Below are positions 27,946 through 42,768 of a stretch of 64,000 nt of DNA, in pieces. A program made the position numbers and the translations under genes. Numbering within the stretch: position 1 is the first letter of the stretch; each line of letters opens with the position of its first letter. The stretch is from Escherichia coli (GTDB taxonomy: Bacteria > Pseudomonadota > Gammaproteobacteria > Enterobacterales > Enterobacteriaceae), in assembly GCF_001677475.2 (NCBI RefSeq), contig NZ_CP015229.1; one strand, written 5' to 3'. Below the pieces are notes generated by a model, which searched no databases, was not told the origin of the DNA, and was given only the letters and a program-made list of their open reading frames with translations.

Positions 27946-28295
27946 TGCTCTCCCTGATTGCTTTAATGAAAAAGTCATATAAGTTGCCATGAACAATGTT
28001 TATTCATCCTGGCGATGACAAGATTCACCATTATTCTTTATGGGTATAACTGTCGGCGCAGAATCCTACCTTTTATCGTGTAACGATGCAAAATAATCCC
28101 GCTATAAATATGAGGGGATAAAGGCGGCCGGCAACAAAATAGCAACCTGATGAAATTTTGACGGAAACAACCACTATTGGTTTGATGATGCCCGACGGCA
28201 GTCCTACTCTTGCGCCACTCGTTCGTCGCTCTGAACGCCAGTGGTTGCAGTGGACACTGGCGTGGTTGGCTCATTGAATAGTGAGGTGCTAGCAC

Positions 28296-28472
28296 ATGAC
28301 GGGTTTCAGGGGTAATACACCAAATACCAATACAATTGCTGATTATATGAGCCAATTGCCGATGTTACAGAAAAGGCTAAAAAATGTAAGAGGCATGCAG
28401 GATGATAAACGCGCTATTGCCCAACAGGGGTTTCTGGAATTAGTCCTGTTCCATGGTCATTACAACTCTTAA
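28296..28472 (+). CDS. Hypothetical small protein (58 aa)
   Basis: ATG 28296 preceded by GAGGTG about 8 nt upstream; no recognisable family; not in ORF track (under 60 aa). Confidence 0.25.
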   Translation: MTGFRGNTPNTNTIADYMSQLPMLQKRLKNVRGMQDDKRAIAQQGFLELVLFHGHYNS

Positions 28473-28882
28473 AACATTACTTCAATATAATTAATGTGTA
28501 TATCATTCCCGATATTAATTTATGAAGTGAATTTGATATATTCCGAATTCTTAATTTACATTACTAATGTATGGGGCATAACGTTAAGATTGCTATGTGC
28601 AGATTAACATATCAGGGTGGGGCGGTAGCGTTTACAGATATTAATCAATTGATGAGAATTATGTTAACTGCGTAATCATTTGCATCGATTATTGATATTG
28701 AAGATAGATTAATAAAAATGCTGAGAATTAATGTTAAAAAATCATAACGGGAAACGTTGATAACTTGCTTTGATTTCATTTTCTATGAAGATGATGTCAT
28801 CAATACTGTATAAAGTGGAAATGTTGAACATCAAAGAGCGTTTGTGTTTTATCTGAAAGATATTATTTCCAGGGGGAAGGAT

Positions 28883-29013
28883 ATGTCATTAAGGAGAATG
28901 ACATCTGGTGAATTAACATTGGCCAGATCGATTTTTGAGAATACAATTGATTATAGCAAGGTATGGATCCACAATGAAAAATATTTGCCTGGTCAAGGGG
29001 AAAGAACAGCGAT
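28883..29013 (+). pseudogene. 5' portion of a host ORF interrupted by the prophage left end
   Basis: ATG 28883 with strong GGGGGAAGGA Shine-Dalgarno; the reading frame runs straight across the Mu-type end at 29014 into phage sequence, so the track ORF 28844..29083 is a host-phage fusion. Confidence 0.45.
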
Positions 29014-29040
29014 TGTATTGATTCACTTGAAGTACGAAAA
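29014..29040 (+). repeat. Prophage left terminal transposase-binding site (L1-like)
   Basis: Begins with 5'-TG; sequence matches the recalled Mu attL terminus. Confidence 0.75.
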
Positions 29041-29352
29041 AAACCGGGAGGACATTGGATTATTCGGGATTTGGCGGGATTAGATTTAGTGGGGCTTGCA
29101 AGCCTGTAGGACAGATTTTAGCCGTTACATCTTGAAACGCGAAAGATTGTTGGAAACAGCTTTTGATTCATTAAAGACACGAAAAGCAATTACTTCACGC
29201 ATCATTTCAAGTACAGCTTCAAAAATGCTTCAAAAACGGTAACAACCAGGCTTTCGGCAAGTGATGTGTGTCAAAAACAATCATCACTGTTTGGGTATCT
29301 TACATATGTAATTACCTAGAGTGAAGTTTATGTCTTAGCTATTACCTGGTTG

Positions 29353-29877
29353 TTATACAGCTTTCTTTACATCGTTTTCTCTTACAGGGAAATTATGTTC
29401 TTTGCCTTCATACTGAGACAAAATCTCTCTCACTTTTTCAGGTGGTAATGCCTGAAGAGTTTGCAGGGTTTTCTGTTGATCCACAGTAATCCCTAATGCC
29501 TCTAATGCCTTATCTTTACTGACAATTGTAGGCATAAGTCCTTTAATCCCTGCTACACGAATGATCTCCACAGCTGCGGCCTGCTCATCTGGTGTTAAGA
29601 AGCTCATTGCATAAATTAGCCTCTCATCAACTGTATGGGCGATTGATGTATGCACTGGTTTATCAGAAAGTGAGGCTCCTTTAATGGCCCTACGTGTTTC
29701 TTCTGGCAGACTGTTGATGTGATACTCATAAGCGACACCTTTCCCACCGTGACGCTGACGTTTTACCCAATCTTCCGCCACAGCTTTCCTGGTAATGTTA
29801 GTCGCCAACTTTGGTACACCAGGCATCCCTTCCAGCTCTTTCGCATTAAACCATTCTTTGATTTCAAAAGACATCAT
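29353..29877 (-). CDS. c: Transposable-phage repressor (Mu c / D108 repressor family)
   Basis: 174 aa, divergent from ner-A-B; N-terminal about 60 aa are roughly 50 percent identical to the N-terminus of the adjacent transposase. Confidence 0.8.
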   Translation of the reverse strand: MMSFEIKEWFNAKELEGMPGVPKLATNITRKAVAEDWVKRQRHGGKGVAYEYHINSLPEETRRAIKGASLSDKPVHTSIAHTVDERLIYAMSFLTPDEQAAAVEIIRVAGIKGLMPTIVSKDKALEALGITVDQQKTLQTLQALPPEKVREILSQYEGKEHNFPVRENDVKKAV

Positions 29878-30062
29878 TTAAAATCCTAGCGATTTCAATA
29901 GAGACAAAATAAATTCATATAAAAATCATGCCGTTATATGAAATCATGGTAAATACTTTCAAATCTCTATTGATTTGAAAATGATTCCACACTACATTGC
30001 ACGATATGCCGTGAGCTACTTTATAGCGTAGCTCACGGGGGAATCTGAAAGGATTACATGAA
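29878..30062. promoter_or_regulatory. Early operator/promoter region between divergent c and ner
   Basis: AT-rich 185-bp divergent intergenic region with several inverted repeats (for example TCAAAT..ATTTGA at about 29958-29978). Confidence 0.6.
30009..30038. promoter_or_regulatory. Perfect inverted repeat CCGTGAGCTAC-N8-GTAGCTCACGG; candidate Ner operator
   Basis: 11-bp arms at 30009-30019 and 30028-30038 with AT-rich 8-bp spacer, 25 bp upstream of ner. Confidence 0.5.
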
Positions 30063-38427: not shown

Positions 38428-38812
38428 CTGGCTGATTTGTTCCCGACTGATGAGAACCCCATGGCCGCTGGCCGGACTGACGCTCTGTATGTTCATCATC
38501 AGCATGTTATGTGGCTGGCGATCGTTCGTGTTGATGTTGTTGTCCTTTGCCGGGGTGGTGTTGTTTTCATACAGCGCAAGCCTCGGGAATGTGCCATTTC
38601 GCCTGCTGCCTGAGGTCCGTTACCGGGCTTTTGGTCGCCACATCATCGTGTGGTCATGGGTGGTCTGGGCGCTGGGATATTTCTGCTGCGTCTTCAGCAC
38701 GCTGATGATGATGTCACCGGCACACCCGGTGTTCTGGCTGTGTGGTGGCGGTTGCGGCGCTCTGCTCTGTCTTCAGCGTTATCTGTATGGAGGTTTCCCG
38801 TGGATCCGTTAA
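38402..38812 (+). CDS. Polytopic small membrane protein (holin-like or exclusion-like)
   Basis: 136 aa from ATG 38402; three to four hydrophobic helices; lysis-region context. Confidence 0.5.
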   Translation: MNKILKLCDWLICSRLMRTPWPLAGLTLCMFIISMLCGWRSFVLMLLSFAGVVLFSYSASLGNVPFRLLPEVRYRAFGRHIIVWSWVVWALGYFCCVFSTLMMMSPAHPVFWLCGGGCGALLCLQRYLYGGFPWIR

Positions 38813-39408
38813 CCCTTTCAGGCATCGCCTCCGTTCTGCTGAAAGCCGGGCCGGGGCTGATTCGTTCCGTCGGGCGCTGGTTTGGTGGCGGTACATCTGC
38901 CGCCGCTGACTCGGTGGCCGGTATGGTGGAAAGCGTCCGGGAAAGCCTGCCGGTGGCTGAACAGCAGCGCGTTCTGGAACAGAAGATGGCGATGTTACCA
39001 CCGGAACAACAGATACAACTGGAAACCCTGAAAATTCAGCTGCAACAACTGGAGGTGGAGCGGCAGAAGCTGGTGCTGGCTGACCAGCAGGCCGCACACC
39101 ACGAACAGCAGGAAACCATCCGCAATGGTGACAACGCCACGGACAGCTATGTGCGCCAGACGCGCCCGCTGCTGGCCCGCCTTTCCTGTTACAGCGGTCT
39201 GGCCTATGTGCTGTTGCTCTCCTGCGGCCAGATTGCCGGAGCCGTTGCCGGTGCCAGAGGTATCACGCTGCATATGCCAACACCGGACTGGGATATCACG
39301 CTGATGTTGCTTACCCCTGCGCTGGGCTATCTCGGCGTGCGAACCCTTGACGGCTTTGCCCGTTACAGCAAATCAAGCCGTCACAAAATGTCTGCGGGGC
39401 TGAAATGA
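38800..39408 (+). CDS. Lysis-associated membrane protein with coiled-coil N-terminus and C-terminal transmembrane segments
   Basis: About 202 aa if initiated at GTG 38800 (overlaps preceding stop); Q/L-rich heptad region then two hydrophobic helices; start uncertain (internal ATGs at 38920 and 38984). Confidence 0.45.
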   Translation: MDPLTLSGIASVLLKAGPGLIRSVGRWFGGGTSAAADSVAGMVESVRESLPVAEQQRVLEQKMAMLPPEQQIQLETLKIQLQQLEVERQKLVLADQQAAHHEQQETIRNGDNATDSYVRQTRPLLARLSCYSGLAYVLLLSCGQIAGAVAGARGITLHMPTPDWDITLMLLTPALGYLGVRTLDGFARYSKSSRHKMSAGLK

Positions 39409-39632
39409 CCGATGAAATCGACCGCATCAGTGAAGTGGTTCTGAACGAGCGTCAGTGCGTCGTTAAAGCCTGGCAGACGCGGACAAAAGAAGCGCCCCAC
39501 AGTCGGGGCTTCTGCAATGACTGCGGGAACGTTATTCCGGCACAGCGCCTTGCGGCGCTGCCGGATGTGGTGACCTGTATTGACTGCCAGCAGATGCGTG
39601 AGCGCAGGAGGAAGACATGTCCTGGGAAGTGA
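39405..39632 (+). CDS. TraR/DksA-family C4 zinc-finger protein
   Basis: 75 aa; CNDCGNVIP...CIDCQ four-cysteine motif characteristic of the DksA/TraR zinc finger. Confidence 0.7.
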   Translation: MTDEIDRISEVVLNERQCVVKAWQTRTKEAPHSRGFCNDCGNVIPAQRLAALPDVVTCIDCQQMRERRRKTCPGK

Positions 39633-39922
39633 TCCGGGCCAACTGGCCCATTTTATGGGCGCTGTTGATGACAGCGATAAATTTGCTTCAGCTGATTCTG
39701 GCAAAGACTTACGTCAAACGCGAAGAGTTTGATTCGCTGCGTTCCCGTGTGTCGGTGATGGAAGGTCTGGTGAATCAGCTCCCCGACCGCAATGAATTTC
39801 ACCGCCTGCAACTGGATATCAGCAACCTGCGGGGCGAAATCCGGGAACTGGGGCCATCCATACGCCAGGTTTCCCGCATCAGTGATTTGTTATTAGAGAA
39901 CGAGTTAAAGGTAAAAAATTAA
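39617..39922 (+). CDS. Membrane-anchored coiled-coil protein (i-spanin/Rz-like)
   Basis: 101 aa; N-terminal transmembrane helix (ILWALLMTAINLLQLILA) followed by coiled-coil-like sequence. Confidence 0.5.
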   Translation: MSWEVIRANWPILWALLMTAINLLQLILAKTYVKREEFDSLRSRVSVMEGLVNQLPDRNEFHRLQLDISNLRGEIRELGPSIRQVSRISDLLLENELKVKN

Positions 39923-40215
39923 TGGCGATGAAAGAGATCCTCACTGAAGACCGTCGTCTGGTGTTGCTGCGTTCCCTGCTGGACTGTGGCGACAGCGCGA
40001 ATGAATCCGTGTTGCAGACCTGCCTTCAGGCTTATGGTCATAAGGTATCCCGTGATGTGGTGCGCACCCAGCTTGCATGGCTTCGCGAGCAGGGGTTGGT
40101 TCGTCTGTCTGATGTGGGCGGCTGTTACGTGGCTGAAATCACCGGCAGCGGCGAGGATGTGGCAAACGGCCTGTCCAGCGTTCCGGGCGTTAAAAAACCC
40201 CGTGCGAGGGGCTGA
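39922..40215 (+). CDS. Hypothetical phage protein
   Basis: 97 aa; translationally coupled to the preceding ORF. Confidence 0.5.
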   Translation: MAMKEILTEDRRLVLLRSLLDCGDSANESVLQTCLQAYGHKVSRDVVRTQLAWLREQGLVRLSDVGGCYVAEITGSGEDVANGLSSVPGVKKPRARG

Positions 40216-40217
40216 GC

Positions 40218-40517
40218 ATGGCCCGAAAACTGAAGCCGTTAAGTCGCGGAGAACGGGCCGTCGTGCGGCAACTGGCGTACTGCCTTGTGCTGGCAGATAT
40301 TGAGCAAAACGCCATTGTCCGTGCATACGAACAACAGACCGGAAAGCCCTGGAGCCCGGATGCACCGGACAGCCCCATGAAACGCTTTCTGCGGTCATCA
40401 CCGGCATGTGCGCGGCTGTGGAAGCTGCTGGGTAAGGATATCCGGTCCGTTCGCGAAGAAATATACGCCGGTCTGAAAACACCGGGAACTGAAGACGGGG
40501 GCCGTCGTGAACCGTAA
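40218..40517 (+). CDS. Hypothetical phage protein
   Basis: 99 aa. Confidence 0.5.
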   Translation: MARKLKPLSRGERAVVRQLAYCLVLADIEQNAIVRAYEQQTGKPWSPDAPDSPMKRFLRSSPACARLWKLLGKDIRSVREEIYAGLKTPGTEDGGRREP

Positions 40518-40654
40518 AAAGAATCCGATAAGTAAAGCGTCCCGTGATGAACTCCGCCGTCTGGCGCACAACCTGACATGGCGGGAAATCCAGAGCGGCG
40601 CGCTGAAATCTGCATACGAAAGTTTACAGCGTAGTGAGCAACAGGAGGGCAAAC

Positions 40655-41236
40655 ATGGAAAATGAACAACGCCCCACCCGTGGCCGTCTTTCCAAAGTGG
40701 ATTTACTCCCGGACAGCATCCGGGAGCAGTTGCATCAGATGCTGCGGGAAAAGCGGCACACGCAGGAAGAAATCCGCGAAGCCATCAACGCCCTGATTGA
40801 CGAACACAACCTGCCGGAAGAGATGCAGTTAAGCCGGACGGGTTTAAACCGTTATGCCAGCCGCATGGAAAAAGTCGGGGCCAAAATCCGCGCCTCCCGC
40901 GAAATGGCCGAAGTCTGGGCGGCAAAGCTGGGTTCCGCGCCAACATCAGACGTCGGCAGGCTGCTGATGGAGTTTGTAAAAACGCTGGCCTTTGAAACGT
41001 CCATGTCGATGGCAGAAGACGACAAACCTGTAGCACCAAAGGCGCTGGGGCAACTGGCGCTGGTTGCCCAGCGTCTGGAAGCGGCAGCCATGACCAGCCA
41101 TAAACGCGAGAAAGCGATCCGCGATGCGTTTGCACAGGAGATGGCTGAGAAAACCGAAGAGCTGGTCAGAACGGGTGGTCTGTCAGGCGGTGCGGCTGAC
41201 ACCATCAAACGAGACATTCTGGGGATTAGCGCATGA
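40655..41236 (+). CDS. Mu gp27-like protein (putative terminase small subunit)
   Basis: 193 aa from ATG 40655 with AGGAGGG Shine-Dalgarno; directly upstream of the large terminase and overlapping its start. Confidence 0.6.
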   Translation: MENEQRPTRGRLSKVDLLPDSIREQLHQMLREKRHTQEEIREAINALIDEHNLPEEMQLSRTGLNRYASRMEKVGAKIRASREMAEVWAAKLGSAPTSDVGRLLMEFVKTLAFETSMSMAEDDKPVAPKALGQLALVAQRLEAAAMTSHKREKAIRDAFAQEMAEKTEELVRTGGLSGGAADTIKRDILGISA

Positions 41237-42768
41237 CACAGATGAACACGTTCAGTGAATCCGATGTTCTGCTGCCGTATCAGAAACGCTGGGTGGCGGA
41301 TGATTCAAAACTGAAAATCGCCGAGAAATCACGCCGTACCGGGTTAACCTGGGCGGAAGCGGCAGATGCAGCACTGACCGCATCACTGAAGAAGGAAAAC
41401 GGCGGGCGCGATCACTTTTATATCGGTTCGAATAAGGAGATGGCCCGCGAATTTATCGACGCCGTAGCGATGTGGGCGAAAGCGTTTAATGCGGCAGCGG
41501 AAGAAATCCGCGAGGAAGTGATCACCGACGAAGACATGGACATTCTGACGTTCGTCGTGTACTTCGCCAGCGGTTTTAAGGTCAAGGCGCTGTCCAGCAA
41601 TCCGGGCAACATTCGCGGGATGCAGGGGAATGTCACCATCGACGAAGCGGCGTTTCATGAAAAACTGGATGAGGTACTCAAGGCGGTCACACCACTGACC
41701 ACGTGGGGCGGTAAGGTTCGCCTTATCTCCACCCATGACGGCGTGGACAACCCGTTTAACCAGCTGATTCAGGAGAGCCGCGCAGGCAAAAAAGATTACC
41801 GTATTCACACCATCACGCTGGATGACGCCTGCAGTGACGGGCTGTACCGGCGTATCTGTCAGGTACGCGGCATGGAGTGGTCACCGGAGGCCGAGGCGGA
41901 ATGGAAAGAAGGCCTGCTGCGAAATACCGCCACCCGCGAAGACGCCCTGGAGGAATATTACTGCGTCCCGAAAAACGGCGGCGGCACGTATATCCCCCGC
42001 TCAATGCGTGAACGTGCAGCCCGTGGCACCGGAAAAGTGTTGCGCTTTACCGGCACACCGGAATTTAACGCACTGACGGAAAGCCAGCGCCGGGCAGATA
42101 TCCGGGAATGGCTGGAAACGGTGGTGCGCCCTGAACTGGAAAAACTCCCACAGAACCTGCGCCACTGTCTGGGGGAAGACTTTGCGCGTTCGGGTGACCT
42201 GACTGTGCTGGCCCCGGTGACGGTGAACGACGACACCACCCGCGAGGTGCCGTTCCTGGTTGAGCTTGCCAATGTGCCGTTTAAACAGCAGGAGCAGGTA
42301 CTGTTCTGGCTTTGCGATCGTCTGCCCCGTCGTGACGGCATCAAAATGGATGCGCGGGGGAATGGTCAGTATCTGGCAGAACAGGCGGCGGAGCGGTACG
42401 GCGACGAGGTGGAACAGGTGATGCTGTCCGTGGCGTTTTACCGTGAAAACATGCCCCGTTTCCGTGCGGCGTTTGAAGATGATGAGCTGATCCTTCCGAA
42501 GCATGAAGACGTGATCAATGACCTCGGGGCCATTCAGTTACTGCGTGGCGTTCCCGGCATTGATGATTCACGAACCAGAGGCAGCGACGGTCACAAACGT
42601 CACGGCGACGCCGCTGTGGCCATTTTCCTGGGCTTCCTTGCCAGTAAAGATGACTGCCACCGTTACGAACTGCACCGTCTGAACCGCCCGGCGAAACCGG
42701 AAGAACGCAACGCGCGCCGCCAGCTGAAGCTGACGCGCGGCCTGAAAAATGAGGGAGGTTTACTGTGA
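41233..42768 (+). CDS. Terminase large subunit (Mu gp28 family)
   Basis: 511 aa; position and sequence character. Confidence 0.88.
   Translation: MTQMNTFSESDVLLPYQKRWVADDSKLKIAEKSRRTGLTWAEAADAALTASLKKENGGRDHFYIGSNKEMAREFIDAVAMWAKAFNAAAEEIREEVITDEDMDILTFVVYFASGFKVKALSSNPGNIRGMQGNVTIDEAAFHEKLDEVLKAVTPLTTWGGKVRLISTHDGVDNPFNQLIQESRAGKKDYRIHTITLDDACSDGLYRRICQVRGMEWSPEAEAEWKEGLLRNTATREDALEEYYCVPKNGGGTYIPRSMRERAARGTGKVLRFTGTPEFNALTESQRRADIREWLETVVRPELEKLPQNLRHCLGEDFARSGDLTVLAPVTVNDDTTREVPFLVELANVPFKQQEQVLFWLCDRLPRRDGIKMDARGNGQYLAEQAAERYGDEVEQVMLSVAFYRENMPRFRAAFEDDELILPKHEDVINDLGAIQLLRGVPGIDDSRTRGSDGHKRHGDAAVAIFLGFLASKDDCHRYELHRLNRPAKPEERNARRQLKLTRGLKNEGGLL

Follow-up and report, generated by a model that had tools for sequence, protein, structure and literature searches.

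A short open reading frame ahead of the small terminase gene of a Mu-like prophage, probably a truncated paralogue of its upstream neighbour

The late operon of a Mu-like prophage in Escherichia coli contains, between an accessory gene (L) and the gene of the small terminase subunit (gp27), an open reading frame of 52 codons (S), which our comparisons point to as a shortened paralogue, or alternative short allele, of L and not as a full member of the L family, phrog_8988. We read S as a translated relic that would act mainly in cis, as a bridge into gp27, and give this reading a probability of roughly 0.55. Ribosomes finishing L at its TAA (40515-40517) would re-initiate at the GTG of S at 40507, aided by a GGGGG run, and would end at the TGA at 40663-40665, atop the gp27 ATG, where they would be passed to gp27. 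In this way S would keep the stop-start coupling of the late operon unbroken and supply the strong AGGAGG of gp27; its helical peptide of about 50 residues would be dispensable or nearly so.

The window, by which we mean the whole analysed stretch of 64,000 nucleotides, is occupied by the prophage from about 28-29 kb onward. The genes around S are the following:

39405-39632: TraR/DksA zinc finger (family search)
39617-39922: DUF2730 (Mu gp25, releasin; family search)
39922..40215, + strand: Mu gp26-like winged-helix gene of the VpaChn25_0724 family, the left border of a variable slot
40218..40517, + strand: L, a full-length phrog_8988 accessory gene of 99 aa (PHROG E 1e-42)
40507..40665, + strand: S, a 52-codon ORF with GTG start and the translation VNRKKNPISKASRDELRRLAHNLTWREIQSGALKSAYESLQRSEQQEGKHGK (ORF listing, sequence)
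40655..41236, + strand: Mu gp27 / DUF3486 small terminase subunit, intact (PF11985 E 1e-54)
41233-42768: large terminase
from 42765: portal

From TraR to the portal gene, neighbouring genes either overlap or lie no more than 2 nt apart; removal of S would leave an untranslated gap of 137 nt between L and gp27. L covers positions 1-91 of the 92 in phrog_8988, and gp27 covers positions 1-172 of the 173 in PF11985 and aligns with residues 3-189 of Mu gp27. In all 38 loci examined gp27 is intact, with 193 aa in 37 of them and 192 aa in the remaining one (L022). Two antisense ORFs lie opposite the gp26-like gene, L and S (39919-40569, − strand, 216 aa; 40190-40669, − strand, 159 aa). They seem to be shadow ORFs cast by coding sequence rich in GC; the + strand is favoured over them because of the family matches of the neighbouring genes and the synonymous-biased variation. 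Further upstream, the gene between the lysis genes and TraR (38650-39408, with an ATG-started form of 202 aa from ~38803) is named inconsistently by PGAP: one E. coli genome has it as a ‘twin-arginine translocase TatA/TatE family subunit’, others have it as a ‘hypothetical protein’.

Flanking gene order, homology and equally tight packing are common to the window and to the late region of Mu (genes 25-26-27-28), and Mu gp26 and gp27 align end-to-end with the window proteins at 60% and 46% identity, respectively. In Mu, however, genes 26 and 27 are separated by a spacer of 11 nt that contains no gene, so that L and S, which lack a Mu counterpart, are both additions relative to Mu. The alignment with Mu gp26 and gp27 had been proposed in an earlier note as a check on whether the small terminase region carries a frameshift, of which S would be a sign. 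Since the gp26-like protein and gp27 align with their Mu counterparts over their whole length and neither gene is broken, this idea can be disposed of: both flanking genes are intact, and L and S are extras in a place where Mu has only its spacer. S itself shows no homology to Mu gp26 or gp27 (PF11985), and a Pfam search with it gave no match.

The same note had described an unlisted, GTG-initiated ORF of 52 codons bridging two phage genes at 40507-40665, and we recovered precisely this ORF, with identical translation and an 11-nt overlap at either end. ‘Unlisted’ is true only in a relative sense, as PGAP already annotates an identical protein in several E. coli genomes. This is WP_170981737.1, a ‘hypothetical protein’ of the strains STEC388, STEC1575 and RM9088, located at the same coordinates relative to its neighbours as S is here. 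A second PGAP ‘hypothetical protein’, WP_001080358.1, represents S-type ORFs in E. coli Mu-like prophages. Neither RefSeq entry states a family, origin or function, and PGAP is not consistent in calling S: in FDAARGOS_943 it omits the ORF, which is intact, and in STEC719 it gives a product of 45 aa.

At both ends, S has the geometry expected of translational coupling, with these elements:

40497..40501, + strand: GGGGG run, an SD-like site for S, 5 nt before the GTG (anti-SD duplex −8.6 kcal/mol)
40507..40517, + strand: 11-nt overlap of the S start and the L stop (GTGAACCGTAA)
40643..40649, + strand: AGGAGGG, the SD of gp27, within codons 46-48 of S (anti-SD duplex −10.8 kcal/mol)
40655..40665, + strand: 11-nt overlap of the S stop and the gp27 start (ATGGAAAATGA)

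The GTG (40507-40509) lies within the final codons of L, and the TGA of S follows just 3' of the gp27 ATG at 40655. The energy of the SD-like site of S is about in the top 5% of the background, and the G-run is kept in all loci seen that carry both L and S. For gp27, the SD energy of −10.8 kcal/mol with S compares to −6.5 kcal/mol in prophages without S. Coupling through overlapping stop and start codons is established in phage late operons, and the overlaps at the two ends of S have the same geometry. The strong AGGAGG may also be able to start gp27 without coupling, in which case a bridging role would be unnecessary. At neither junction does the RNA fold as stably as shuffled sequences do (z +2.4 downstream of the G-run); the S region has no Rfam match at E≤1, and we found in it no internal promoter or terminator on the + strand.

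By its length alone, S is no better than chance, given that 22 kb of the late region contain 141 ORFs of at least 52 codons across the six frames. It stands above chance because of its in-frame homology to the N-terminus of the family of the upstream gene. S matches phrog_8988 at profile positions 1-39 only, with its residues 1-39 in register (hmmscan E 7e-4), and has 39% identity to the first ~39 residues of L (BLASTP E 1e-8). A profile of S variants compared to a profile of 15 L-family proteins gave a probability of 96% (hhalign E 1.5e-9), again with positions 1-39 aligned to 1-39. An ungapped DNA alignment of S and L over their first 117 nt shows 51% identity (60 matching bases), as against 30 ± 4.7 matches (~26%) in a shuffle control, where the best of 2,000 shuffles reached 49. 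Over these 39 codons no indel or stop separates the two sequences. Their start codons, 289 nt apart, are positionally homologous, and GCATACGAA (Ala-Tyr-Glu, AYE) occurs in the same register and at the same offset in both. The N-terminal pattern common to S and phrog_8988 can be written as K-x-K/N-P-L/I-S ... R-x-LA ... EI ... AYE.

Beyond this region the resemblance ends. With its 52 aa, S is much shorter than the members of phrog_8988 (91-99 aa), it lacks TGKPYD, W68 and helices 2-3, and several positions that are hydrophobic in helix 1 of the family are polar in S. Measured by the TGKPYD motif, the conserved tryptophan, the C-terminal helices (~41-87) and its length, S thus falls outside the family; in its location it behaves as a member, lying directly upstream of a gp27-type gene with a stop/start overlap of 11 nt. 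The alignment of full-length members shows little or no variation at T41, G42, K43 and W68, and all ten full-length family representatives have 91-97 aa and carry both TGKPYD and W68. The family is small, with 13 matches among 1.84 billion representatives in an exhaustive HMMER search, and the search with L found no full-length protein with an S-type N-terminus among these representatives. One HMMER match, to a protein of 1,590 aa (P0055), was rejected as spurious, as this is a NACHT/WD40-type repeat protein.

The AlphaFold2 model of L is a helical hairpin (helices at residues 10-41, 53-60 and 62-87; pLDDT 86.5). For S, modeled from a shallow alignment, we obtained a small helical unit at moderate confidence (pLDDT 76.6). 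A Foldseek search of the PDB with the L model returned only generic helical hairpins (best E 1.9), sequence searches of the PDB with S and L profiles gave nothing meaningful, and neither Pfam nor NCBIfam nor PADLOC holds a family for S. None of these searches pointed to a function for either L or S.

S retains the first ~39-43 codons of the family, corresponding to the N-terminal tail and helix 1, as well as the 3' junction with gp27, and the ~50 codons for TGKPYD and the C-terminal helices are gone. The loss can be read in two ways. S may have arisen by an internal deletion, in which case its tail QRSE..GK would be the old C-terminus, or by a 3' truncation after an insertion of 18 nt, a reading in which EQQEGK would echo the EQQTGK of the family. 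The 3' junction of the S type is probably the ancestral one of the family; full-length L makes the same 11-nt junction with gp27 in prophages devoid of S, namely in E. coli E300082 and in two distant loci (L035 and L038).

In related Escherichia Mu-like prophages, the slot between the gp26-like gene and gp27 occurs in five arrangements:

L (99 aa) and S: this window; 19 of 5,426 complete E. coli genomes; 11 complete IMG/VR loci and one contig-end fragment; five metagenome contigs
L (95 aa) only, ending ...QRSEDGK* on the gp27 ATG, 160 bp shorter: 26 complete genomes
S only, its native GTG 2 nt past the stop of the gp26-like gene: IMG/VR locus L031, S 88% identical (tblastn)
L-S fusion of 67 aa, MARKLKPLSRGERAVV followed by NRKK...: 194 collection blocks in the index
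hybrid of 52 aa, MARKLKPLS followed by KASRDEL..., with ATG start: E. marmotae and metagenomes

The form with both genes differs from the S-only form by an insertion of 289 bp. Both fused forms can be derived from the sequence of the window by deletions between short repeats:

40255..40265, + strand: left copy of an exact 11-nt direct repeat, GGGCCGTCGTG
40499..40509, + strand: right copy of GGGCCGTCGTG, which includes the GTG of S
40236..40244, + strand: CCGTTAAGT, codons 7-9 of L, sharing microhomology with CCGATAAGT
40525..40533, + strand: CCGATAAGT, codons 7-9 of S, the partner of CCGTTAAGT

A deletion of 244 nt between the copies of GGGCCGTCGTG gives exactly the in-frame fusion of 67 aa, and one of 289 nt between CCGTTAAGT and CCGATAAGT gives the ATG-started hybrid of 52 aa. 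On the simplest account, the slot has two alternative alleles, L and S, which recombination put in tandem, and the two fusions are secondary deletions. Recombination between a phage with only L and one with only S would yield the tandem seen in the window.

S is restricted to a narrow set of Escherichia Mu-like prophages. S-type proteins form five clusters among 5.8 billion proteins, all from E. coli or E. marmotae, and a scan of metagenome DNA found only five loci with L and S, all of known haplotypes. A tblastn search of 50,697 phage records with S came back empty, even at E≤10. Among cultured phages the closest is Klebsiella phage Kp4866-3, which differs from the window in having a single L gene of 91 aa that leads directly into gp27, without S. 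Our literature search on the gp26-gp27 slot found nothing.

Gene remnants at the mosaic junctions of phage genomes are well established, and the slot shares with such junctions the presence/absence alleles among near-identical phages and the deletions at short direct repeats. S is thus a fresh example of something familiar in temperate phages, whose mosaic junctions hold gene remnants and alternative alleles, and will not surprise a phage specialist, even if an ORF that is intact in most copies is less usual than the typical debris of such places.

Several observations were made in or near the slot. From 40480 to 40509, the frame of S, which is open back to 40477, reads HRELKTGAVV before the GTG, similar to the N-terminus of the gene itself, ARKLKP(LSRGE)RAVV. 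This left junction may represent one more copy of the gene's 5' end, the third and a decayed one, or else a gp26-like 3' remnant. A distant Mu-like prophage (L035, Logan ERR13252829 contig) carries an extra gene of 124 aa at 1634-2008, between the gp26-like gene and the L homologue, and two short contigs (L036 and L037) have an L homologue within the lysis region and not in the slot. It seems, then, that the gp26-gp27 slot is a general hotspot for the insertion of small accessory genes.

To judge how far the S peptide is constrained, we compared substitution patterns between S and its neighbours. Over nine haplotypes with L and S, S had a pN/pS of 0.67; the corresponding ratios were 0.27 in L, 0.12 in the large terminase, 0.08 in the gp26-like gene and 0.06 in gp27. 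Comparison with the S-only locus, which is more distant, gave 0.51 for S and 0.06-0.13 for its neighbours. Segregating changes in 30 loci were 9 synonymous and 15 non-synonymous in codons 10-49 of S, and 93 and 48, respectively, in gp27. The resulting omega-like values of ~0.48 for S and 0.16 for gp27 (Fisher P=0.012) correspond to a constraint on S about three times weaker. S is not distinguishable from neutrality (P=0.07), although an omega of ~0.5 at this P value hints at some purifying selection on the protein. Its GC3 is 0.51, against 0.58-0.67 in the neighbours.

Individual alleles complete this picture. Proline variants (S12P, T24P) occur within the predicted helix of S, STEC719 has a stop at Q46 and the IMG/VR locus L033 a 1-nt deletion, both with L and gp27 intact, and two clusters (P0004 and P0005) are frameshifted versions of the 67-aa fusion. 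Of the 37 loci with S that we examined (one a contig-end fragment), 35 have its frame open, and the chance that both deletion derivatives would stay in frame is about 1/9. Overall, the S protein looks weakly needed, if at all. The earlier note's suggestion that S could be a small real gene may hold: a plausible SD and start, the coding origin, the PGAP calls and a frame open in five arrangements agree with it, and the weak constraint and the disrupted copies do not.

S might be a functional micro-protein, either a trans-acting mimic of helix 1 of L, which would for example pair with the L hairpin or with gp27 and modulate packaging, or a peptide with a new role. We regard this as possible, though unlikely. 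A functional peptide would explain equally well why S is open in five arrangements and in frame in both deletion derivatives, and in L031 S is the sole occupant of the slot, with a GTG and SD of its own. The lack of indels and stops relative to L despite only 51% nucleotide identity, an omega nearer to 0.5 than to 1, the small, helical and moderately confident fold and the PGAP calls in most genomes also agree with it. Against this, S lacks the most conserved residues of the family, it is significantly less constrained than gp27 and tolerates helix-breaking prolines, and nonsense and frameshift alleles, including P0004 and P0005, sit beside intact neighbours. Moreover, S is absent from 26 of 45 related complete-genome prophages, from Klebsiella phage Kp4866-3 and from Mu, and the absence of indels between S and L could predate the truncation. 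More doubtful still is the specific idea that S is a selected, stand-alone mimic of helix 1 that binds L or the small terminase and tunes packaging, or poisons that of competitors. If true, S would be a phage ‘domain-fragment’ regulator that arose when an accessory gene was truncated and that then travelled between Mu-like prophages as a cassette.

The opposite view, that S is untranslated and the 137 nt between L and gp27 are a non-coding remnant open by chance, with gp27 starting independently on its AGGAGG, we consider improbable. It would fit the abundance of chance ORFs of this length, the GTG start with a G-run in place of a canonical SD, the intact ORF skipped by PGAP in FDAARGOS_943, the near-neutral substitution pattern and the low GC3. 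It does not account for the start of S overlapping the upstream stop in classic coupling geometry behind an unusually favourable SD-like site, for a frame whose end coincides in every arrangement with the conserved junction to gp27, or for two deletion derivatives in which S continues, in frame, a gene that starts with ATG and whose translation is certain; nor does a terminator, promoter, RNA family or stable structure give the spacer another role. Least credible, and in our view largely refuted, is that S marks a frameshift, be it as a broken piece of the small terminase or of L, or through programmed +1 frameshifting at the GGGGG run (40497-40501) that would yield an L-S fusion. Relative to L, S does lie in frame +1, and its frame has no stop as far back as 40477. 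On the G-run, tRNA-Gly could slip forward by one base and pair again, and the run is conserved in all loci seen that have L and S together. Yet L and gp27 are of full length when compared to their families, as is gp27 when compared to Mu; S duplicates the N-terminus of L and continues neither neighbour nor any other protein; a read-through L-S architecture is absent among 5.8 billion proteins; the G-run is followed by neither a hungry codon nor a stop nor a stimulatory structure; and loci with S only have no upstream L from which to shift. The translated relic with a bridging role thus remains our preferred reading.

For annotation, S can be labelled a truncated phrog_8988 paralogue and not an orphan hypothetical protein, and it should not be taken for a sign of a damaged terminase. 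New here are this origin, the five-state polymorphism of the slot and the weak constraint on the peptide, and the gp26-gp27 junction of Mu-like phages is marked as a small recombination hotspot. The forms with L only, S only, both genes and the two in-frame fusions make up a compact natural series in near-identical prophages, which would allow a test of whether relic ORFs of small size persist in order to preserve coupling into a packaging gene.

Two further observations concern the prophages as a whole. In the window, the GC content falls to 0.385 at ~28000-30000, where the Mu-like prophage seems to have its left end, with host chromosome to the left. Near it lies a divergent ORF of 174 aa (29353-29877, − strand), followed by + strand ORFs of 662 and 319 aa in the positions of transposases A and B. 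In L010 (GCA_045754795.1, 3272-4601), a carrier of the 67-aa fusion, only 292 aa of the large terminase are left and a Mu gp48-like gene follows directly, a large internal deletion from which we infer that this prophage is defective.
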